A DNA stretch of 63,873 nt, the filler included, from Candidatus Hydrogenedentota bacterium (lineage in GTDB: Bacteria; JBFMHD01): NCBI GenBank assembly GCA_040752395.1. It is 3 parts of 3 records of this genome, joined end to end, with 100 filler letters (N's around TTAATTAATTAA, not from the genome) between each part and the next. Parts side by side here need not be neighbours in the genome. Positions count along the whole stretch, not along the records: positions 32,286 to 63,873 come from JBFMHD010000005.1; 2 more parts are not named here. One strand, given 5' to 3'. The notes beneath the pieces were generated by a model. It was given only the letters and a program-made list of their open reading frames with translations, made no database searches and was not told the DNA's origin. Positions 14,894 to 63,271 of the stretch are shown one piece after another. How positions within the stretch are numbered: the first letter of the stretch is position 1; every line of letters starts with the position of its first letter. The position numbers were made by a program, and so were the translations under genes.

Positions 14894-14985
14894 CCTCCTC
14901 TGAAAAACATTGTAACTCTAATGATATCAAGTAGAGGCAAGAAGCAAGATAACGCAAGAACGCAATAGTGTAGAGCGCAAACCGC
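14894..14985. repeat. Modular intergenic repeat element (SD end + AGAAGCA heptamers + GTGTAGAGCGCAA end)
   Basis: Near-identical to 37037-37103; right part matches 139-170. Confidence 0.85.
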
Positions 14986-29397: not shown

Positions 29398-29566
29398 ATT
29401 TTTAGTTCCAAAATGTTTTGTTGGACAATTATAATTATTTGTGCTATTTATAAACTTTAGTAATCCGTCAGTTATTGGTGCGGTAGAATTTACTTTAGAA
29501 GCAAGAAGCAAGATTAAGGAAACTCCACCGAAGATTGAGGGGATACTCTTATATGAGGTTATTATT

Positions 29567-31478: not shown

Positions 31479-31713
31479 AAAACTAAAGATGATATGAAAA
31501 GAGTCGTGAGTCACAAGTCGCAAGTCGTGAGTCAAAACAGGACTCGAGACTCAAGACTCAAGACTCAAGACTTTTCAGCAGGCTTTTGGCTTTTGGCTCC
31601 AGCCGGCTGTAGTCCGTAGCCTGTAGCCTGTCCTGATACCTCTCACTTCTTCCGTTATCTTGCTTCTTGCTTCTACTTGATATTATTATAATTACAATGT
31701 TTTTCAGAGGAGG
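31475..31713. repeat. Modular intergenic repeat element filling the proC-hfq spacer
   Basis: Reverse complement of 37037-37261; overlaps the proC stop codon and provides the hfq SD. Confidence 0.9.
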
Positions 31714-35747: not shown

Positions 35748-37379
<1,632 letters not shown>

Positions 37380-37476
37380 ATGAAAAGTTAAAAGTTAAAA
37401 CTAAGAATGTAGTTGTAAAGATTATTAATATCTCAAAAGTGGTCAAGAGAAATTATTTGACAGCTGGAACATCTTT

Positions 37477-37514
37477 AAAAAGTAAGTCCCGCTGGTGTTA
37501 ACAGCGGGACTTAC
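37477..37514 (-). terminator. Intrinsic terminator (13-bp perfect stem)
   Basis: GTAAGTCCCGCTG-N7-CAGCGGGACTTAC with a T5 tract on the minus strand. Confidence 0.85.
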
Positions 37515-37603
37515 ACCCACAAAAGTGACTACAAAGGAACTTTTGGGACCTATACACTTAAGCCAAGGGAGGGACGCTTAAATGTTGTTACAGGTTCTGG
37601 TCT
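37477..37603 (-). ncRNA. Candidate sigma28-dependent small RNA (~125 nt)
   Basis: Bounded by a consensus sigma28 promoter and a strong terminator; no SD-ATG ORF; carries an anti-SD stretch GUCCCUCCCUU. Confidence 0.6.
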
Positions 37604-37609
37604 ATTTAC

Positions 37610-37636
37610 TTATCGGCTATTTTTTTAGTAGCTTTA
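37610..37636 (-). promoter_or_regulatory. sigma28 (FliA/SigD) promoter
   Basis: Minus strand TAAA-N15-GCCGATAA, exact consensus. Confidence 0.8.
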
Positions 37637-37877
37637 AATTATTTTTAGTTTTTCACCGAGGCAAAGTCCTGTTTTATCTACAAATCCTGACCTTGTTTCA
37701 AGAGCAGTGTTCTTTCGGTAAGCGTGTGTGGGGCGTAAATACTAAACCATATTTACACCACTATCACTTCAAGCACTATTGCCGAAAGGACACGAATTGC
37801 AGTGAGAGTTTCTGATTCAAAGATACATAAATTTAATACAAGCTGCTCTGTCGCAAAGGAGACTAAGCTGATAAAAA

Positions 37878-40800
37878 TTATTCAAGTGACCAGGCAGGTG
37901 ACCAGTCACTCTGCGGAGGAGCTTCTATTAGTTTTGTTATTTTATCGACATATTTCTTTGTTGGACCATCAGCCGGGTTTTTCTCAAGTATCTTTTTGAA
38001 AAACTCTATTGATTTATCAAACTCTCTCTTTTGATATAAACTACGTGCCTCGTTGAACATAGCTCGTAGAGTTCTGGTTGTATCTTGTATTGTACAATAA
38101 TCCGACACCATTTTATGATATCCATCCGGGTTTGCAACGATATAATCAGTAAGTTTTGCTAACCCGTTTCTTATTTTAACTGAGATTAAGATTATCTGAT
38201 TATTTATTTTATTAGTATCAACAACAGCTGTCTGAATATTTTCTATCAGTTGTTTAAGGTGTTTGCCTATTTCGATTGCTATATTATCTCCAGGTGGCGT
38301 AAACAAACAGCGTTTGTAAAAACACTCAACACGTTTATCAAGTGTATCGAGTGTTTTCAAGAGTTCTTCATATAATTGCGGGTTCTGCGTATTTGTGGAC
38401 TGATAATCCGACTTCAGGATTTCAAGCATATGTTTTATTATATATTTCCATTCAAAGATCTGTTTTTCCCATGTTGTTTTAGCTGTTTCTTTTTTTGTTT
38501 TTAAATTTATAATTTCAGGATTATTTTTAATTTTGTCATCAGAGATATTCTGATAAATTGTATTAAATCTCAAAACAAGTGCTTCTATCTCATTTTTTAC
38601 TTCAATAGTTGCAATTATATCATTATTCTTCATAAATTCTATTACCAGGGGAGACAAATCTGAAAAATACTTTTTTATTTCTTTAACGAACTCTGTTTCT
38701 TCTATTTTTTTAGTAGAATAATAATGGTGGTATCCGAGTATCTTTTCAGGTGGCATATTTTTTAAACCTTCAATTATCAAAGCCGGGATAGGTTTACCAA
38801 CCCAGTATTCGAGAAACTTCTCTTTTTTCCAGCCTATAAGTTCATAAACAGGCAGAGGTGGTTCATCTTCGTGTAATTTCAGGTAATTTAGTAATCTTTC
38901 TTCGATATAATTTTTACTTTTTTCATAGGTAAAAGGGCCGAGAGCGATCCAGGAGTCAAATACTTTGTTAACAGGTTCGAGTTCTTCAGCGAGAGATACA
39001 GCTTCACCCATAACTGAATACTGTCTCTTTTTTTCAGAACCCATATTACCAGCAGAAACGACGCCGGTATTAATGCCCATACGTGCAGAGATTTTAACTC
39101 CGAATTTGAGCTGAATCATACGTTGAATTACTTGTAGTTCTTCCTGTTGTTCAAGCGCGGCATAGCAGCATTTCCATGCATTGTCTTTATCATTCATCGG
39201 CACACCCATCTGTGCCTTAATAGCATCGCCCTCGTATTTATCAATATTCCCACTGTATTTCATAATAATATTACTCATAGGTGTAAGATAAATATTCAAA
39301 ATATTAGCAAGTTCCTGAGCTGTCACACCTTCAGAAATTGTAGTAAAACCTGATACATCCGAAGAGAACATAGTCGCTTCAAGTCTATCCCCGGAGATAT
39401 TGAATTTATCAGGATTATCCTCCATAATTTTTAAAATCTCTGGTGAGACCATAGTAGAGAACATATCACGGACTTTTTTTCGTTCCCGCTGGATTTCAAG
39501 ATATTTATAAGCCAGTGTCAAAACCCATGTTGCGATGGCCGTTGTTTCAATAGAAATAATTGGTAATATAAAACCTTTGCTAAATAGATACCAGGAAATG
39601 ACAGGATAACCTGAGAATACAACAAAAGTTGCAAGTGTCCCTCTCAGAGTCAAGTTCAATGTTGTATAAGTTAATAAAAAAGAGATAAGAATTATTATAA
39701 GATATTCTATATATGGGCTGATATTTTTAAGGAATTGTCGGGTAATTATAGTATTCAAAGCATTTGCTGGATAACCTATCATCATATACCTGTTTTCAAG
39801 TGGTGATGGGTTTTGTGAAGAGAGCCCCGTGGCAGTAAGACCGGTGAATATAATTTTGTTATGTAACTCCATTAGCGAAACAGTAAATTTCTTAAGACCC
39901 ATTCTTACTTCTGATGGTTCTGGAAAAAACAAGGGTTGCACCTTACCAATCATATTTTTCTTAAAGAAAAATTTTGTCTGGTTGTATCCTTCCTTTAATA
40001 AAATCGAGTCCTGCATTTTACATTTTTTTAAAATATCTTCGTATTTGGGGTCTTTATCTCTATTTAATTCAGTTAACAAGGTTTTGTTAAAAACCATTTG
40101 ATGCCAGATATTCGTATCAGCAAGTGTTTGGCCAAGTCCTACACCACAAAGAAAAATATTATAATCAGCATCCATCTCAATAAAATATTCCATTAACCAT
40201 GAAATAAAAAGAGACCATGCAATCTGTTTTGCTTTTTTTTCAGGAACAAGGCCGGAATGAATTAATCCTGTATTTAGATAATCTAATACTGTCATCGGGT
40301 CGCTCGTTCCTATGGGATGATTCTGCAAGATTTTTTTACCAAGTATAAAAGTGTAATAATAAGCGATAAGATTATAAGGCAGATGAGTAAAACTTTCTTT
40401 ATAAGCGCCGGTCCAGTTAATAGTTAAAAAACCTTGTTCATCGATGGGTATTCTGAAAGGAGATTGAGTTTGGAATTGAATATATTTCCCTGGATATACC
40501 AATATTTTATTAAGTGGGGTATTGAAATAATCAGCTGCGATTAAAGTTACAAGTGAAGGATAGACCGCACCTTCATATTTAACAGCCATAGAATAATGTC
40601 TTGCGATACCATCATTATCAAGAAATATTCTATTATAGCCCACGCCTTTAACTATCTCATTTAATTTTTTTATTGGCGGGATGAAATCAACAGCTGTTTT
40701 CAAATCATCAATGTTTTTATAATTTTCTAACGTGAATTTACTCATTGATAAAATATTTTCTTTACGGTCAGGAAGGATCTGGTTCTTTTTTAATTCTGTT

Positions 40801-41345
40801 AATTCCTTGAGTTCTTTTTTTGATATGCTTATTTCAGGTAGATAAAAATTACTGCATAGAAATACATTTTTATAGTTTGTGATAGTTTCTATCATTTCTT
40901 TATTAAAATCCGGAACAGCGCTTAAGATTACCTCAGTATTTGAATTATTATTTATGTGATGATTTAACTGAGTATTAATATTTTTCGCGGTATTTTCCTG
41001 GAAATAAATAGTACTTTCTTTATTAAAAGTAATATCAACAAAACTACAGGATGCAGCAGAATATAAATCACAAACATCAACAATAATTTTCAGTTTATCC
41101 CATGGCCAGGGCCATCTTCCAATACTTTCAATGGCATTATCATCAATATCAATGGTAACGATTTTATCAGAGATGATAGGTTTTTGGAAGTATCTACGCT
41201 TATGTCGGCTATCGATTGTAAAGTTTTCTAATTGGTCAAATGATTTAAATAAATCGAGTAATATTATAATTAAAGCTATTACTGAGCTAATGATTAAAGT
41301 CCTTAATAAGAGATTTTTTAGTTCAATCTGTTTTTTAGTTCCCAT
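37878..41345 (-). CDS. CHASE2-domain class III adenylate cyclase, C1-like half (metal-binding Asps kept, Asn/Arg lost)
   Basis: CHASE2 (IDIDD..IGRWPWP, DNDGIAR), TMs, cyclase SSDVSGFT / IDKYEGDA / RMGINTG / GEAVSLAEELE, TPR-like tail. Confidence 0.9.
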   Translation of the reverse strand: MGTKKQIELKNLLLRTLIISSVIALIIILLDLFKSFDQLENFTIDSRHKRRYFQKPIISDKIVTIDIDDNAIESIGRWPWPWDKLKIIVDVCDLYSAASCSFVDITFNKESTIYFQENTAKNINTQLNHHINNNSNTEVILSAVPDFNKEMIETITNYKNVFLCSNFYLPEISISKKELKELTELKKNQILPDRKENILSMSKFTLENYKNIDDLKTAVDFIPPIKKLNEIVKGVGYNRIFLDNDGIARHYSMAVKYEGAVYPSLVTLIAADYFNTPLNKILVYPGKYIQFQTQSPFRIPIDEQGFLTINWTGAYKESFTHLPYNLIAYYYTFILGKKILQNHPIGTSDPMTVLDYLNTGLIHSGLVPEKKAKQIAWSLFISWLMEYFIEMDADYNIFLCGVGLGQTLADTNIWHQMVFNKTLLTELNRDKDPKYEDILKKCKMQDSILLKEGYNQTKFFFKKNMIGKVQPLFFPEPSEVRMGLKKFTVSLMELHNKIIFTGLTATGLSSQNPSPLENRYMMIGYPANALNTIITRQFLKNISPYIEYLIIILISFLLTYTTLNLTLRGTLATFVVFSGYPVISWYLFSKGFILPIISIETTAIATWVLTLAYKYLEIQRERKKVRDMFSTMVSPEILKIMEDNPDKFNISGDRLEATMFSSDVSGFTTISEGVTAQELANILNIYLTPMSNIIMKYSGNIDKYEGDAIKAQMGVPMNDKDNAWKCCYAALEQQEELQVIQRMIQLKFGVKISARMGINTGVVSAGNMGSEKKRQYSVMGEAVSLAEELEPVNKVFDSWIALGPFTYEKSKNYIEERLLNYLKLHEDEPPLPVYELIGWKKEKFLEYWVGKPIPALIIEGLKNMPPEKILGYHHYYSTKKIEETEFVKEIKKYFSDLSPLVIEFMKNNDIIATIEVKNEIEALVLRFNTIYQNISDDKIKNNPEIINLKTKKETAKTTWEKQIFEWKYIIKHMLEILKSDYQSTNTQNPQLYEELLKTLDTLDKRVECFYKRCLFTPPGDNIAIEIGKHLKQLIENIQTAVVDTNKINNQIILISVKIRNGLAKLTDYIVANPDGYHKMVSDYCTIQDTTRTLRAMFNEARSLYQKREFDKSIEFFKKILEKNPADGPTKKYVDKITKLIEAPPQSDWSPAWSLE

Positions 41346-41382
41346 AATCGTGGAGGCCCTTTGTCGTTAAAGTCACTGGTGC

Positions 41383-44300
41383 TCATTTTTTGGTCTGGAC
41401 AAATTCACCCTGCCAGTTGGGATGCGGCGGATTCTCTTTATACATTTTTATTCTATCTATCAAACATAAAGATGGTGAATCAACAGGATCTATTTCAACA
41501 CATTTTTTAAAACCAGCGAGCGCTTCATCCCATTTCCGTTCCCAGTATTTCTCAAGTGAATCTTCATATATATTTATAACATCTCTTTTATTATCACTTA
41601 TAGCACCGATCTCTGCCATCATATCTCTGTAGATCTTATTATCTGTTTTTATTAAATCATAGAAATCTGCTACGTTTTTCTTATATTTTTCCATAATAAC
41701 ACTGAGATTTTTATTTAGTGTTTCTATGTTTTCTTTATTTTTATTTTGTATAAATTCTTTTATATGCTGGTTTGAGGATAAAATCAGTTCATGGATATCA
41801 TCTGTTAGTTCTAATTTGTTTCTAAACATTTTAATCTTATTCCCAAGTAGCATTATATTCTGCAACTCCGCCATCCTGCTCACATCTGTTTTTAGCTCTT
41901 CAATAATAGGTTTAACCACCTTTCCTTCGCAATTATTTAAAAGTTCTAAATAATCGCCGCCGTTATTAACAACAGAGTTATCAATATTATACATTTTACA
42001 AACGTTATTTAGTTCATCAATAAGGTCTAAGAAGAAAATTTTATTACCCACTTCTGTAATATTAGAAGCCAGAGGTAATTGACTTCCAAAAAATTCTTTT
42101 ATCTTTTTAGCGAGTGGATTATTTGTTTCTTCATATTTTTGTTTCATAAATCTATAATAAGCGAAAACTTTTGTGCCTGGTGCGATTTGCCAGCGGATAA
42201 GTAATGAATTTGGTACAGGTTTTGACCCTAATAATTCGATGTATTTATCTTTTTTCCATCCAAGAACTTCATATATAGTTGTTGGGATTGTTTTTCCTTT
42301 TAATAAAAGTTTATCAAGTTTGCGAATTTCTACAAAATTTTTAATTTTATCATAAGTTTCACCCCCTGTTATAATTCTGCTATTATATATGAGATTAGCG
42401 GGCATAAATCGCGCTGCAACATTGACTGCATCACCCATTACTGTGTATTGCATCTTTTTTTCAGAACCCATATTCCCTGCTGATACATATCCCCAGTTAA
42501 ACCCTATTGTCGTGAAAACGCTGACAGCATAATTAACATAGACGTAATATTGAAAAGCCTGGATATCAAGCTGTTGTTCAATGGATGAAAAGGCGCATTT
42601 CCATGCATTATTCGGGTCATCAATCGGTACACCAAAATCAGACATTATAATATGGCCCTCGTATTTATCAATATAACCTTCATAATCCAGAATAATCTCG
42701 CTCGTTGGAGTAAGATAAATACTTAAAATTCTGCTTAAATAATCAGGTGCAACAGATTGCGTAACCTTATTAAAACCCTGAATCATTGAGAATGAAGTAG
42801 TTACAGGTTTTCGTTCACCTCTTAACGTAAATTTATCTGGATTTTCTTCCATAAGTTTTAATACAGCAGGTGATACCATCGTAGAAAAGATATTACGTAT
42901 CTTTCGTCTATCAATAAGAGAGTGAATGTATTTATTAACTGCGATAGAAAGATAAGAAAGATAGATCGAAAGTAAAGGGATTACGAGTGTTAACCAATAC
43001 CCAAATCCTGTCCACAAAAACCAAATAATAGCTATATACACCAAACTTATTAAAATAGTGATAATTATACCTATCTTAGCACTCAAAAGAGCAGTAATAA
43101 CCCCGGTTATTAGTGCGAGAAATAAAGATATAAAATATTTATACCATGTTGGTGGGAAACGTAAAAATTGTCTTGTTAACATCATATTGAGAAAGTTAGT
43201 ATGCATTGCGACCATAGGGCAACTCTCTTCAAATGGCATTGGGTTTAAATCTATTGTACCGATGCCTGTAAGCCCTATCATTAGAATTCTGTTTTCAAGG
43301 AACAATGGAGATACAGGGGTTAATTTATTATTTATCAAAATATTTTGTTTTTTAGGGAAATAAAACGGGGCTACATCATCTATCCGATTTTTGTTATGAA
43401 ACCACTTAATATTATCAAATACTTCTTTAGCATATTCATCATCGCAAAAATATTTATAATTCTGTTTGAAATTAATAAAACCAATATCTTTATTCTTCTT
43501 TAATTCTTTGAATAAATTATGACTGATCTTTACAGACCAGTAAACATCATCAACGTATTTTAAATAGATATCATTTTTAATTTTTTCTTTGATTGATTGT
43601 GGGTTTTCAGCGGATAAAATCTCATTCTGGAAACATCTGCTTAAAGCAATTGATGCTGATATTTCCGAAATCAAATGAGGTTCCACAAGATTTTCTTGTT
43701 CTATATAGTTATAAAGTTCCAAGTAAAGCGTTTGTAAGTTTTCCTGTATGGGAGAGAACTTTCTTGCTATTTCTTTTGCTTTAATAATTGCATAATAATA
43801 AGAGATAGTTTTAAAGGAGTAATGAAAAAATGTAGTATTAAAACCGCCTGCCCAATTTACAAGTGTCTGAGAGTTATTATCTATGGGTATTATTATGTCC
43901 CTACGCTTATGAGTTTTGTCATTATAAATAAGCACATTTTTAAATTGTATAAATTTACCTGGTTTTATCTCGATTTCATTGATGTTAAAATCAAGTATAT
44001 CAGAAGCCATTTTCAAGGTGAGAGCTGGATAAATGTAATTATCATAAAAGATAAAAATAGGGAATAATCTCACAGTAGAATCCATATCTTTGACGATCTG
44101 AGCGAATCCAGTGCCTCTTGATGCCTGCGTAAACTTGTAAAGTGGGGCGACTATATCTATTGATTTAAAAATATGTCTTCTGTAAATGTCCTTGAATGCG
44201 GGATTGGTTATCGGGATTGCATTTTTTTCAATCTCAAGAATAGCAAGTTTTTTATCTTCCGGATAATTTTCTCTTCGTTTCTTACTTTCTTCGAGTAATT

Positions 44301-44865
44301 CTTCAAACGGTTTTGTAGCTATATCTTCGCTCGGGAATTGCATATATTGGGCGAGATAAATTATTTTTGCGTGTTCTAACGATTTTTCAAATTCTAAATC
44401 ATAATCTTTAAACGAATTGTCGAGCTGTTTTAGCACCATTTTTTTATCATCATAAGCCCCGGGTTTTTGAATCAGCTTAATCAATGGTTCTGGATAAAAG
44501 ACTATATTACTTTTTTCAGCGAAAAATACGTCATAACCACAGGCACGGCTATTATAAAATTTTAAGGTATCTATGAGTGCGACCTGTCTATTTCGTGCCC
44601 ATGGCCAGAACCCGAATAAATCTATTGACGGGTCATCATAATCAATATACCCGAGGTCTTCACAGATTTTTATTTGTGGTCTTAATCGATACCGTAAATC
44701 AAGTGATTTTAATTCGGTTCGTTTAAACAAATCGAGACGGTCCAACAATAAAGCAAGTATGCCAACTGTTAACCCGAAAATAAAACCATTGATTATTCTT
44801 TCGTATACCTTTTTATGTTTAGATATTAGCGCCTTGAATCGTTGCATCTCTGCTCCTTTGCCCAT
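41383..44865 (-). CDS. CHASE2-domain class III adenylate cyclase, C2-like half (Asn/Arg/KGK kept, Asps lost)
   Basis: CHASE2 (IDYDD..FGFWPWAR, DMDSTVR), TMs, cyclase FSMIQGF / IDKYEGHI / YTVMGDAVNVAAR / LKGK, TPR-like tail. Confidence 0.9.
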   Translation of the reverse strand: MGKGAEMQRFKALISKHKKVYERIINGFIFGLTVGILALLLDRLDLFKRTELKSLDLRYRLRPQIKICEDLGYIDYDDPSIDLFGFWPWARNRQVALIDTLKFYNSRACGYDVFFAEKSNIVFYPEPLIKLIQKPGAYDDKKMVLKQLDNSFKDYDLEFEKSLEHAKIIYLAQYMQFPSEDIATKPFEELLEESKKRRENYPEDKKLAILEIEKNAIPITNPAFKDIYRRHIFKSIDIVAPLYKFTQASRGTGFAQIVKDMDSTVRLFPIFIFYDNYIYPALTLKMASDILDFNINEIEIKPGKFIQFKNVLIYNDKTHKRRDIIIPIDNNSQTLVNWAGGFNTTFFHYSFKTISYYYAIIKAKEIARKFSPIQENLQTLYLELYNYIEQENLVEPHLISEISASIALSRCFQNEILSAENPQSIKEKIKNDIYLKYVDDVYWSVKISHNLFKELKKNKDIGFINFKQNYKYFCDDEYAKEVFDNIKWFHNKNRIDDVAPFYFPKKQNILINNKLTPVSPLFLENRILMIGLTGIGTIDLNPMPFEESCPMVAMHTNFLNMMLTRQFLRFPPTWYKYFISLFLALITGVITALLSAKIGIIITILISLVYIAIIWFLWTGFGYWLTLVIPLLSIYLSYLSIAVNKYIHSLIDRRKIRNIFSTMVSPAVLKLMEENPDKFTLRGERKPVTTSFSMIQGFNKVTQSVAPDYLSRILSIYLTPTSEIILDYEGYIDKYEGHIIMSDFGVPIDDPNNAWKCAFSSIEQQLDIQAFQYYVYVNYAVSVFTTIGFNWGYVSAGNMGSEKKMQYTVMGDAVNVAARFMPANLIYNSRIITGGETYDKIKNFVEIRKLDKLLLKGKTIPTTIYEVLGWKKDKYIELLGSKPVPNSLLIRWQIAPGTKVFAYYRFMKQKYEETNNPLAKKIKEFFGSQLPLASNITEVGNKIFFLDLIDELNNVCKMYNIDNSVVNNGGDYLELLNNCEGKVVKPIIEELKTDVSRMAELQNIMLLGNKIKMFRNKLELTDDIHELILSSNQHIKEFIQNKNKENIETLNKNLSVIMEKYKKNVADFYDLIKTDNKIYRDMMAEIGAISDNKRDVINIYEDSLEKYWERKWDEALAGFKKCVEIDPVDSPSLCLIDRIKMYKENPPHPNWQGEFVQTKK

Positions 44866-44921
44866 TATTATCTGTAATTACTCAGTTATAGTTAGAAGCA
44901 AGAAGCAAGATAAAAAAACAC

Positions 44922-45887
44922 TTATATAATAATAGATTTCAGAATGGTATCCTGAGTAATACCATCAGCACTGGCATGATAGTTCAAAACGATCCTGTGT
45001 CTTAACACATCACAAAACATATATTTAACATCCTCCATACCTATACTGACCCTAGCCTCAAGTAAAGCCCTTACTTTAGCTGACTTTACAAGGTGCTGAG
45101 AGGCACGCGGGCCACAGCCCCATCTAACGTATTTCTTAACAATTTCTGAATCTGTAATTTCGGGTCTTGTTCTTCTGACAAGGTTTACCGTATCTTTTAT
45201 TATTTCTTCAGATACTGGTAAATCTTTGAATAATTGCTGTATCTGGATTATTTTATTTTTATCAATAATTGTGTTCAGACAGGAAAGATTATCAGCCCAT
45301 TCTTTTGATGCTATCTTCATCTCTTCTTCAAAAGAGGGGTACCCAATCTTAATATATAAAAGAAATCTATCAAGTTGAGCTTCTGGTAATGGGTATGTTC
45401 CTTCAAGTTCGATAGGATTTTGTGTAGCAAGAACAAGATAGGGTCTATCAAGTGAAATAGTTTTTTCGCCTATACTTACCTCACGTTCCTGCATAGCTTG
45501 AAGCAAAGCTGCTTGTGTTTTGGGTGGGGTTCGATTTATTTCATCGGCAAGAATAATGTTGCCAAATAAGGGCCCTTTTAAAAGTTTGAAATACCTCTGT
45601 TGTGAGGTTTTGTCTACCTCAAGTATATCTGTTCCCGTGATATCAGTGGGCATTAAATCAGGCGTAAATTGAATCCTTGAAAATTTTAAATCAAGAATTT
45701 TACTAACAGCTGTAACAGTTAGAGTTTTTGCAAGCCCGGGAACACCCTCAAGCAGTATATGACCATCAGCAAACAAAGAAATTATAATAGACTCAATCAA
45801 TTTATCCTGGCCAATTATAACTTTATGAACCTCTGATATTAAATTATTTTTTATGTCTTTTAACTCATCGATTAATTTTTCACTCAT
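44922..45887 (-). CDS. MoxR-family AAA+ ATPase
   Basis: GVPGLAKT, RIQFTPDLMP, ADEINRTPPKTQAALL, GTYPLPEAQLDRF. Confidence 0.95.
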   Translation of the reverse strand: MSEKLIDELKDIKNNLISEVHKVIIGQDKLIESIIISLFADGHILLEGVPGLAKTLTVTAVSKILDLKFSRIQFTPDLMPTDITGTDILEVDKTSQQRYFKLLKGPLFGNIILADEINRTPPKTQAALLQAMQEREVSIGEKTISLDRPYLVLATQNPIELEGTYPLPEAQLDRFLLYIKIGYPSFEEEMKIASKEWADNLSCLNTIIDKNKIIQIQQLFKDLPVSEEIIKDTVNLVRRTRPEITDSEIVKKYVRWGCGPRASQHLVKSAKVRALLEARVSIGMEDVKYMFCDVLRHRIVLNYHASADGITQDTILKSIII

Positions 45888-47200
45888 AATAAATTTTCTC
45901 CATCTAATTGTTTGATAATCTCTTTATCAAAAAAACCAGCAATCGTTGCTGTTACATCAAGTATATGTGGTCTTTGTTTTTGATATTTTTCTGATAAAAA
46001 TAGAAATGCATCATCGTGGGTATGCATACCTGTGAAATGTGTATCATTAAAGATGTTTTCCTTGTTTAATGAACCCTTTATATCAAACCCATATTCAGAA
46101 ACTAAAACTAAATCAGGGGCATTAACAATGTATTCACCTTTGTATATAACCTCTGGTCTGTAAATATCTTTTATAACTTTTTTATCATCAAATTTCAAAT
46201 CTTTAAAAATATCGGTTAATTCATCAATTATTTTAAAACCACCATTTCTTGAGACCGAACCATCTCTAAACTTATCAGCATAATGGATGTAAATTCTTCC
46301 TGGCGTAAGACAGAATGCTTTTGTATCAGATAAGATATCTGTAAATTCTTTGCCTTTTACTTTAAGAAACCCTTTTTCAATCAAAATCCTATTAACATTA
46401 ATCTCTTTTTGAAGTCTTGTGAAGCCGTGATCTGAGATGATTCCAAATAATACATCATCTGTCTTTTCAGAAAAGACCTCACCAAGAAATTTGTCTACTT
46501 CTTTATAAAAATTTATAAATTCAGTATGATATCTATGTTTTTCATCAAAAAAAGCATCTATTAAAAAATGCTGGAGTCTGTCAGTAGCTGTAATAACTCC
46601 TATGAATAAATCCCACTCCTCATTTTTTAATAAATCTAAAAGAAGATTTTTATGAATACTAAAAGTATTATAAACATCTTCAATAAACTTATTTTTATTA
46701 TCCTTACCTAACGATGAATCAACGTCTGTTCTATAATTTATTTTTTTAAGCTGCATAAGTAATTCTTCGGGATAAACGCTCTTGTCTAATTCGCAAGCAA
46801 CAAACCCTGAAACCATTATCCCATTAATCGGCTGTGCAGGATAAGTTGATGGGATATTAAAAGCAATCGTTCTTTTCCCAAGTATGTCCCAGATTAATTT
46901 AGACTTTAAATCAGATAGTTGAGGAAAGATGTATCTATAAGATTTTGGATGAATCTCAAAGAAACCATAGAGATTATGTTTTCCCGGGTTAACACCTGTT
47001 ATAAAACTCGACCAGGCAACCGATGATACATCCGGTATAGTTGTATCCATCTGTGATAATCTGCCTGTTTTACAGATAGAATTTAAATTTGGCATAATTC
47101 CTTTATCAAGCAATGTCGTAATCAGGGTATAAGGTACGCCATCAAGCCCGATAATTATTACTCTGCTTTTTTCCTTTTTTTTAAATAGAGAAATCACCAT
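45884..47200 (-). CDS. Alkaline phosphatase superfamily protein (type I phosphodiesterase / nucleotide pyrophosphatase)
   Basis: IIGLDG, TGVNPGKH, DRLQH, ISDHGF, GMH. Confidence 0.85.
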   Translation of the reverse strand: MVISLFKKKEKSRVIIIGLDGVPYTLITTLLDKGIMPNLNSICKTGRLSQMDTTIPDVSSVAWSSFITGVNPGKHNLYGFFEIHPKSYRYIFPQLSDLKSKLIWDILGKRTIAFNIPSTYPAQPINGIMVSGFVACELDKSVYPEELLMQLKKINYRTDVDSSLGKDNKNKFIEDVYNTFSIHKNLLLDLLKNEEWDLFIGVITATDRLQHFLIDAFFDEKHRYHTEFINFYKEVDKFLGEVFSEKTDDVLFGIISDHGFTRLQKEINVNRILIEKGFLKVKGKEFTDILSDTKAFCLTPGRIYIHYADKFRDGSVSRNGGFKIIDELTDIFKDLKFDDKKVIKDIYRPEVIYKGEYIVNAPDLVLVSEYGFDIKGSLNKENIFNDTHFTGMHTHDDAFLFLSEKYQKQRPHILDVTATIAGFFDKEIIKQLDGENLL

Positions 47201-47201
47201 C

Positions 47202-47663
47202 TTATTCTATATACCCAAGGCCTCGTAATCGTTCCTGAACCTTAATATCTTCCTCGTTAGAATAACTACTGCCTTCTAATCTCTTGATAAAATTTAAATG
47301 TTCGAGTGTTTTAATAATATTAATAACTGAATCTTTAATATCAGAGGATACCAGAACCTCTGCATAAGGTATATCTCTTCTATCAGTTATCAATATTTTT
47401 TTCTTAATATCAATTATGTCTTTAATCTTTATATCGTCAGACTTTAATATCAGAGAGATATTGTTTCTTACAAATAGTTTACAAAAATGTATAACAATTT
47501 CCAATTTTTTTTCTTTAGTTAAATCTAATAATATTTCTTCTTTATCAATATCAATAAATTCTACAGCGATATCTCTTTCTAATAGTTGTCCTTCAAGTTC
47601 TTTAGCTATTTTGGAAAGTAAACTACTGTTTTGCCCACTAATAAAAAGACATACGCCGCTCAT
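47202..47663 (-). CDS. Degenerate adenylyl-sulfate kinase (CysC)-like protein
   Basis: CysC-like N-terminus with eroded P-loop (ISGQNSSLLSKIAKELE..L.ERD..VEFID); C-terminal YS.EE..KVQERLRGLGYIE. Confidence 0.5.
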   Translation of the reverse strand: MSGVCLFISGQNSSLLSKIAKELEGQLLERDIAVEFIDIDKEEILLDLTKEKKLEIVIHFCKLFVRNNISLILKSDDIKIKDIIDIKKKILITDRRDIPYAEVLVSSDIKDSVINIIKTLEHLNFIKRLEGSSYSNEEDIKVQERLRGLGYIE

Positions 47664-48001
47664 AATGAAGACCTCTCCTCTTGCCTCTTGCCTCTAAAGG
47701 TAGGAAATGCTTGCTTGCGCATACGATATGCCAAACTTGAGAAGAAGCCATATATTCCCTCTATTAATTTTACTATTATTATTTTAACACTTTTTCTGTT
47801 TTCTGTTAACATCTTTTTCAAAATTTTTTAAATATATTCTTTTGCTCCATACCCCAATCCATGGGATTTTGTCGTTGATGATGTTCCAGTAAATTTAATT
47901 CTTTCTTGCATTAAAATTGATTCTTAAATATAATTTATGGTGTATATAGTTTAATAGATTTTAGTTTTATAGAGGAAATTCAATATATATAAGTAACAAA
48001 A

Positions 48002-52499: not shown

Positions 52500-52619
52500 T
52501 TTTTTATACCGTATTCACGATAACCGAATATCTTGCTTCTTGCATCTTGCTTCTGGAAGACACACGGGTCTGCTCCTTCACTTTTAACTTTTTACCAACC
52601 TCTAACTTAGGGATTACTT

Positions 52620-63236: not shown

Positions 63237-63271
63237 ATTAAGAAGCAAGAAGCGAGGGGCAAGAGAGATTG

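Follow-up and report, generated by a model that had tools for sequence, protein, structure and literature searches.

Can two membrane cyclases, neither of which carries a whole active site, make one between them? The question is raised by two neighboring genes in a 63,873-nucleotide stretch of DNA, here called the window, which joins three parts of the genome of a Candidatus Hydrogenedentota bacterium (GenBank assembly GCA_040752395.1). The genes, designated B (upstream) and A (downstream), lie in tandem on the minus strand, and each encodes a CHASE2 sensor domain followed by a nucleotidyl cyclase domain of class III. An initial annotation, made from the sequence alone, proposed that A and B correspond to the C1 and C2 halves of a mammalian adenylyl cyclase, and that a single active site of the Lys/Thr type arises only when the two combine. 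That proposal is supported by reciprocal losses of catalytic residues, by B-then-A gene pairing, by the phylogenetic tree, by regional relaxation of the sequence and by a structural model, and we consider it likely that A and B act together as an obligate heterodimer of the C1/C2 kind, an adenylyl cyclase in which one site is of the Lys/Thr type and the other pocket is degenerate. All coordinates below are those of the whole window; residue numbers are counted from the starts of the open reading frames (ORFs) at 41345 for A and 44865 for B.

Division of the catalytic residues between two proteins

Both proteins score above the Pfam cut-offs for both domains. CHASE2 (PF05226, cut-off 26.3 bits) is matched at 92.5 bits (4.3e-26) in A and at 114.2 bits (1e-32), in two stretches, in B; Guanylate_cyc (PF00211, cut-off 21.9 bits) is matched at 50.6 bits (2.2e-13) in A and at 38.7 bits (1e-09) in B. 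Over their full lengths the proteins are 28% identical by BLASTP. As first described, a gap-free alignment of the cyclase domains is obtained with an offset of 31 residues, and 106 of its 226 positions are identical.

In mammalian cyclases, C1 gives the two Asp residues and an Arg, while the base-reading pair, the loop Lys, the Asn and the second Arg come from C2. Every residue and codon named for A and B in the initial annotation was checked by indexing into the translated ORFs, and all proved correct. The metal-binding Asp residues are present in A as D663 (codon 39357-39359) and D707 (39225-39227), and A also keeps the beta4 Arg, R755, and the base-reading Lys, K703. Lost from A are the Asn (now S784), the transition-state Arg (now E788) and the KGK loop (now H825-E826-D827); the base-reading Thr position is S777. 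B keeps K734, T808, N815, R819 and the KGK loop (K856-G857-K858), and has M694 and H738 in place of the metal-binding Asp residues and T786 in place of the beta4 Arg. The changes in A thus affect three C2-side positions only, and those in B three C1-side positions only. The full catalytic set is absent from either chain alone and is complete only across A plus B. When the two domains are aligned to the bacterial class IIIb cyclases CyaB (3R5G) and Cya2 (2W01), these residues fall on the canonical motifs FxxDxxGFT, KxxGD, RxGxxxG, TxxGxxVNxAxR and KGK.

Class IIIb, as defined by Linder and Schultz in 2003, has Thr in place of the base-reading Asp. The Lys and Thr expected of this class are both found in B, as K734 and T808. 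By the rule, given in a passage of PMC6005667, that Lys together with Asp or Thr denotes an ATP substrate, the substrate of the pair would be ATP and its product cyclic AMP (cAMP).

The same division throughout a family

Homologs of A and B were collected for the cytosolic half of each, and eight catalytic columns were scored in 218 proteins. The end result was three classes, comprising 80 A-type proteins, 79 B-type proteins and 59 full cyclases with all eight residues; other patterns did not occur. Both Asp residues, the beta4 Arg and the base-reading Lys are each kept in 80/80 A-type sequences. The Asn position never holds Asn in this class (T in 37, A in 29, H in 7, S in 3, K in 2, E in 1, R in 1), the transition-state Arg position is Glu in 79 of the 80, and the loop Lys is found in none; the base-reading Thr position is occupied by Thr (55 proteins), Cys (18) or Ser (7). 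Among B-type proteins, Asn, Arg, loop Lys, Thr and base-reading Lys are kept in 79/79. The first Asp and the beta4 Arg are kept in 0/79, and where the second Asp would stand, 68 have His and none has Asp. Full cyclases, mostly 699-844 residues in length, keep the C1-side and the C2-side residues, with seven of the eight positions invariant and the eighth K in 58/59. Neither the 80 A-type nor the 79 B-type proteins include an exception to this partition, which represents more than chance.

Relaxation of the sequence is regional. Throughout the beta1-alpha1 metal motif, B is relaxed where A is invariant, and the reverse is true of the alpha4 Asn/Gln and the KGK..P loop, where A is relaxed and B invariant. 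In addition, A has gained invariant residues, namely S661, K710, E787, E788 and L789. The three classes have comparable mean conservation over the domain (0.76, 0.72 and 0.77), and neither paralog is decaying; A and B are both full-length open frames, and mean column identity among their orthologs is 42-45%. Pairs were found in Nitrospirota, Lindowbacteria, Hydrogenedentota, Planctomycetota, genomes labeled Syntrophales, and other uncultured genomes.

Paired genes and a single duplication

One genome per species was scanned with the A-type alignment, and a reverse scan was made with the B-type alignment; a single-protein query gave only one distant locus, and alignments were used instead. The A-type scan returned 80 loci, 13 with an A-type gene and 67 with a single full cyclase. 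At all 13 A-anchored loci, a B-type gene lies directly upstream on the same strand. The B-type scan returned 76 loci, and the two scans together gave 39 distinct B-type contigs, on 35 of which a classified A-type gene lies directly downstream of B. Related loci share the gene order and the short spacing. The adjacent pairs with matching reciprocal losses that the initial annotation had suggested looking for in other genomes are therefore found. Loss of these residues at random, in unpaired genes, had been named as an outcome that would refute the idea; the partition is fixed and the genes are paired, and this test did not refute it.

The remaining contigs differ in kind. In L099, the start of an A-like ORF is followed by Ns and the contig end. 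The contig of L088 stops 25 nucleotides past B, and in the same metagenome-assembled genome an A-type gene opens another contig (L117). At L097 and L101, A is absent within 9 kb downstream, and whole-genome searches located exactly one A-type gene at an unlinked site in either genome (L152 and L153). No B-bearing genome without an A-type gene was found among the genomes of the 39 contigs, L099 being represented by an ORF start only. Full-cyclase loci carry a single cyclase each, except for L140, which has two full copies. Five related genomes have exactly one A/B pair each, besides other cyclases, and each has 14-33 matches to cyclic-nucleotide-binding domains, from which receptors for cyclic nucleotides are present in these five genomes. 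A search for a fused A-B form among proteins of 2023-5000 residues passed one of 4631 candidates, an unrelated multi-kinase, and this blank is weak evidence.

Two other arrangements of cyclases were encountered. Locus L160 (G002:C73:197571-201263) holds another adjacent pair of cyclase ORFs, whose residue patterns, DKDRTKYN and DKTR----, are incomplete; its genome, a Nitrospirota labeled Candidatus Magnetocorallium, is also the source of L101. Single frames of 1300-1414 residues with two cyclase-domain matches occur in three related genomes (G005:C62:21513-22931, G003:C511:1118-2374 and G007:C30:106812-107876).

A phylogenetic tree was built by IQ-TREE in quick mode from 101 cyclase domains (37 A-type, 40 B-type and 24 randomly chosen full) after 10 same-contig duplicates were dropped. 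The tree has no set outgroup and is rooted at its midpoint, and it is the position of A plus B inside the full cyclases that gives the change its direction. All 37 A-type domains form one clade (SH-aLRT 99), as do all 40 B-type domains (SH-aLRT 99), and the two join in a clade (SH-aLRT 97) nested inside full CHASE2 cyclases. Subclades within A and B share their membership, as seen for L107/L109, for Lindowbacteria, for Hydrogenedentota, and for the window with L082, L083 and L098. Long branches were flagged only for outgroup rows and L101_B. Our reading is that one old duplication of a CHASE2 cyclase would have been followed by reciprocal loss and then by co-divergence across several phyla. 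Because A and B nest inside bacterial CHASE2 class IIIb cyclases, their split is independent of that between mammalian C1 and C2.

A predicted complex

Residues 612-850 of A and 643-881 of B were co-folded, each with its own alignment, in three runs and with three controls. The median ipSAE for A:B was 0.71 (runs 0.74, 0.71 and 0.52), against 0.31 for the best control; 58 of 80 solved complexes reach the ipSAE mark applied, as do 2 of 110 mismatched pairs. Between the A:B runs, 67% or more of the contacts recur, with partner pLDDT of at least 80. The modeled interface, A 631-784 with B 662-815, is of the symmetric head-to-tail type of class III cyclases. The model supports binding of A to B, short of showing dimerization.

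Proposed mechanism and competing explanations

In the mechanism that we propose, each subunit would consist of an N-terminal transmembrane (TM) helix, a CHASE2 ectodomain, three TM helices, a cyclase domain and a helical C-terminal domain. A and B would be co-transcribed, B first, and their cyclase domains would pair head to tail. A would supply D663 and D707 to bind Mg and R755 to bind phosphate, while B would supply K734 and T808 to read adenine, N815 and R819 to stabilize the transition state, and K856 and K858 of the KGK loop, so that the two halves together make one competent ATP site. The second pocket, lined by M694, H738 and T786 of B and by K703, S777, S784, E788 and the HED loop of A, would be non-catalytic. 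Such a system would have originated by one duplication of an ordinary homodimeric CHASE2 cyclase and subsequent reciprocal loss.

The initial annotation went further, in that both homodimers would be dead, the degenerate pocket would be analogous to the forskolin site, and the two CHASE2 sensors could act as a coincidence detector. The degenerate pocket probably has a structural or allosteric role, because its residues are not free to drift. K703 is kept in 80/80 A-type proteins and E788 in 79/80, A has its gained invariants, and B position 738 is His in 68/79; from these, the pocket may bind a ligand. By analogy with the forskolin site of mammalian membrane cyclases and the pseudosymmetric site of soluble guanylyl cyclase, we suggest tentatively that the pair is a two-input receptor, its degenerate pocket a dedicated allosteric site for an adenine nucleotide or other small ligand. 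If this were true, cAMP synthesis would require or weigh two outside signals through the divergent CHASE2 ectodomains, and the pair would offer a natural bacterial model for the evolutionary path from symmetric homodimers to cyclases that are asymmetric and allosterically tunable.

Several points weigh against an obligate heterodimer specific for ATP. A single rule, that of Lys/Thr, underlies the assignment of substrate. An A:A dimer would keep the metal sites, the Lys and a Thr or Ser, and trace activity from it is possible. Adjacency is not absolute, in that the genes are unlinked in two genomes (L097 and L101). The relatives all come from metagenome-assembled genomes, where assembly errors may affect single loci, and the frames at loci L004 and L113 are broken. 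As to the structural model, its pass may reflect likeness to the many solved class III dimers, and it cannot separate A:B from A:A or B:B.

The alternative that survives best, though we hold it to be unlikely, is a non-obligate pair, in which A is a homodimer with low basal activity that its inert paralog B boosts or gates. All 80 A-type proteins keep the metal-binding Asp residues, the phosphate-binding Arg, the Lys and a Ser, Thr or Cys at the base-reading position, as such an enzyme would need, and in 2 of the 39 genomes the genes are unlinked. Loss of the Asn/Arg pair reportedly lowers, rather than abolishes, class III turnover in most cases, according to mutagenesis of Rv1625c. An inert B, however, would have little cause to hold its Asn, Arg, Lys/Thr and KGK loop invariant in 79/79 sequences, a pattern that is sensible only for catalysis with the Asp residues of A. 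Nor would low basal activity in A be served by Glu fixed at the Arg position (79/80), which reverses the charge at the transition state.

Still less probable is the idea that both proteins are pseudo-enzymes, with the cyclase domains acting as dimerization or scaffold modules and signaling passing through the helical/TPR-like C-terminal domains. Each protein alone does lack essential catalytic residues, and both carry a large, well-conserved C-terminal domain with no matched fold. Pseudo-enzymes, however, would not keep complementary catalytic residues invariant across some 80 orthologs each, and reciprocal relaxation of one half-site, with the other half conserved as in active relatives, would be unexpected. 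Chance or recent decay, by which duplicated cyclases degenerate independently and their complementarity is coincidental, would agree with paralogs only 28% identical overall, but it is made wholly improbable by one partition in all A-type and B-type proteins of several phyla, by old sister clades with mirrored subclades, and by full-length frames with the mean column identity given above.

The obligate A plus B enzyme, if confirmed, would bear on several matters. A step of duplication and reciprocal loss would be seen as a stable and widespread bacterial state, without fusion. The two genes would provide a genetically separable system in which to ask why asymmetry is selected, whether for half-of-sites regulation, for an allosteric pseudo-site or for the integration of two sensors. 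The sensor domain CHASE2, whose known ligands are few, would gain a two-sensor context. For annotation, the case urges caution, in that a cyclase called inactive for want of certain residues may make up one half of an enzyme that works.

Architecture and surroundings of the genes

Features of the locus are collected in Table 1. The ORF coordinates in the initial annotation are correct, but the start of B, and with it the numbering, probably is not. An alternative ATG at 44847, with AAGGAG ahead of it, would give a protein of 1154 residues, and a database copy, P0123, is identical to B minus its first six residues. The true start is probably this ATG rather than that at 44865, and from these two observations the B residue numbers used here are likely to be 6 too high.

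Table 1. Positions of the gene pair, its domains and neighboring features in the window.
Feature	Position	Strand	Description	Basis
Gene B, putative C2-like subunit	41383..44865	-	1160 aa from ATG at 44865	ORF, Pfam
B extracytoplasmic CHASE2 sensor	43075..44727	-	~residues 47-597, N-terminal TM helix to TM cluster	Pfam, hydropathy
B cyclase domain	42238..42915	-	residues 651-876	
B C-terminal helical domain, TPR-like hairpin and tail	41386..42237	-		AF2 model
B tail, WQGEFVQTKK-COOH	41386-41415	-	final 10 residues in 40/40 B-type ORFs	
Spacer, B stop to A start	41346..41382	-	37 nt, same strand	
Gene A, putative C1-like subunit	37878..41345	-	1155 aa	ORF, Pfam
A extracytoplasmic CHASE2 sensor	39723..41255	-	~residues 31-541	Pfam, hydropathy
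A cyclase domain	38811..39488	-	residues 620-845	
A C-terminal helical domain, TPR-like hairpin and acidic tail	37881..38810	-		AF2 model
A tail	37881-37910	-	diverged to acidic form	
MoxR AAA+ ATPase, type I phosphodiesterase/nucleotide pyrophosphatase, 153-aa ORF	44922-47663	-	same strand as B, upstream of it	
Heptamer repeat, CTTGCTT-type	44894..44910	-	MoxR-B gap; possible regulatory element	
CTTGCTTCTTGCTTCT copies	114-129, 14933-14948, 29497-29512, 31659-31674, 37076-37098			
CTTGCTTCTTGCTTCT copies, continued	44894-44909, 47680-47695, 52532-52554, 63241-63256			
Terminator-like hairpin	37482..37514	-	13-bp stem, 8 GC pairs, T run	consensus scan only

By hydropathy, A and B each have an N-terminal TM helix, a large ectodomain, a TM cluster and then the cyclase domain, with peaks at residues 12-39 and 542-611 in A and at 24-46 and 598-643 in B. 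The ectodomains are larger than those of full relatives of about 700 residues. A further difference from these same relatives, in both proteins, is a helical insert after the cyclase domain, about 230 residues long. The insert of A is modeled by AlphaFold2 (AF2) with a pLDDT of 94.7; the cytosolic model of B has a pLDDT of 87.4 and a pTM of 0.86, with a tail of low confidence. A Foldseek search of PDB with the C-terminal domain of A gave no match at E <= 0.001. The last ~60 residues of A compare by VIA to TPR proteins with Z of 7.3-8.8, which is the noise range for helical repeats, and Pfam TPR_2 scores 21 bits in A, below its cut-off of 27.

W1151, G1153, Q1157 and K1160 are invariant in the tail of B. 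Full relatives (proteins P0083-P0118) end in PPxxxWQGE(F/Y)(V/I)xTxK-COOH after a TPR-like hairpin, and W-Q-G-E-F-V-x-T-x-K-COOH may be described as a conserved C-terminal peptide of CHASE2 class IIIb cyclases in its own right. Retention of the ancestral tail by B, the subunit that keeps the Asn, Arg and Lys, hints at a functional link.

The MoxR cluster upstream of B is tightly packed, with two of its genes overlapping by 4 nucleotides and two lying 1 nucleotide apart; its 153-residue ORF has no match in Pfam. The gap between the MoxR stop and the start of B is 56 nucleotides long and contains a heptamer repeat. MoxR and the phosphodiesterase were considered as partners of the pair and rejected, since they are not conserved beside it in other loci. 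Any one flanking family is seen at 9 or fewer of the 46 pair loci examined (duplicate contigs merged), and the conserved unit is the pair itself. Some Nitrospirota loci, L004 1-4557 and four or five similar to it, encode before the pair a very large Pro/Gly/Met-rich protein (six loci) and a 171-residue ORF (five loci).

The heptamer-repeat motif CTTGCTTCTTGCTTCT has 11 copies in the window at two or fewer mismatches, where 0.05 would be expected. One copy sits immediately upstream of B and a second immediately upstream of the gene for enolase, and a common regulatory or promoter-associated role of the motif is possible. The gap between A and enolase (37029-37877, 850 nucleotides) contains several different tandem repeats of 7-8 nucleotides, and the terminator-like hairpin lies about 360 nucleotides past the stop of A. 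Neither an Rfam family nor a tRNA or tmRNA was found in this gap by Rfam and ARAGORN.

Relation to known cyclases

Older surveys speculated that incomplete bacterial cyclases might heterodimerize, and Kobayashi in 2004 reportedly described bacterial proteins, similar to soluble adenylyl cyclase, with two cyclase domains per chain. We found no natural bacterial class III pair with complementary half-sites in the literature, of which most subscription journals were not covered; the word "heterodimer" does not appear in the text of PMC2447327. According to sections of the 2022 review by Schultz (PMC9552081), bacterial class III cyclases homodimerize and build two productive centers from both monomers, in agreement with the initial annotation, which had called such enzymes typically homodimeric; the asymmetric design with one site is there attributed to gene duplication and fusion in early eukaryotes. 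The products of gcyB and gcyC of Rhodospirillum centenum were considered as a precedent and rejected, as excerpts of PMC4681086 describe them as non-catalytic subunits and they are annotated as hypothetical.

The mammalian membrane adenylyl cyclases AC1-9 (class IIIa) resemble the A/B pair in forming one site between two diverged cyclase domains, with a second, degenerate pocket related to it by symmetry, and the mammalian structures 1AZS, 1CJK and 8SL3 are among the PDB sequence matches. The mammalian enzyme is one chain, TM1(6)-C1-TM2(6)-C2, whereas A and B are encoded separately, carry 1+3 TM helices apiece together with CHASE2, and have the Thr of class IIIb rather than the Asp of class IIIa. 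We know of no determinants for Gs-alpha or forskolin in A or B. The pair does not belong to the mammalian group, being no single chain and showing a C1/C2-like split that is not of common descent.

Soluble guanylyl cyclase (sGC) alpha/beta consists of two gene products with one catalytic and one pseudosymmetric site, the arrangement proposed for A and B. Its pseudosymmetric site binds nucleotides allosterically, according to titles of works cited in PMC6005667. It differs in being eukaryotic and cytosolic, in its H-NOX, PAS and coiled-coil regions, and in using GTP, and its match to the window proteins is weak (E ~1e-4 to 3e-3).

Closest in sequence are homodimeric CHASE2 class IIIb cyclases such as Synechocystis Cya2 (2W01), which share domain order and catalytic subfamily with A and B; others are known from Sinorhizobium (PMC13001267, in part). 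The best PDB matches are 2W01 (E 1.7e-25) and Pseudomonas aeruginosa CyaB, 3R5G (3.8e-24), for A, and 3R5G (1.5e-22) for B. Cya2 homodimerizes, by the account in a portion of PMC6005667. Such enzymes have all catalytic residues in each chain, and two sites, whereas A and B have half each. A and B also differ from them by the enlarged ectodomain and the helical insert of about 230 residues.

A likeness of another kind is found in engineered mutants of Mycobacterium tuberculosis Rv1625c, which are artificial, whereas A/B is natural and evolutionarily fixed. When mixed, complementary point mutants, each defective in the opposite half-site, reportedly rebuild a single active site, which serves as a proof of principle (Guo et al. 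2001, EMBO J 20:3667). Natural Rv1625c has identical monomers and two productive centers, as a section of PMC9552081 relates. The rhodopsin-guanylyl cyclases of chytrids, in the descriptions given in parts of PMC10622942 and PMC8815786, have two different sensor-cyclase subunits and are active only as heterodimers; they differ from A/B in being eukaryotic, in their rhodopsin sensors and in their GTP substrate. Judged by its sequences, A/B is like mammalian C1/C2 and sGC alpha/beta in its predicted function and is a member of neither family, because it comprises two genes, class IIIb catalytic domains, CHASE2 sensors and a split that arose independently.

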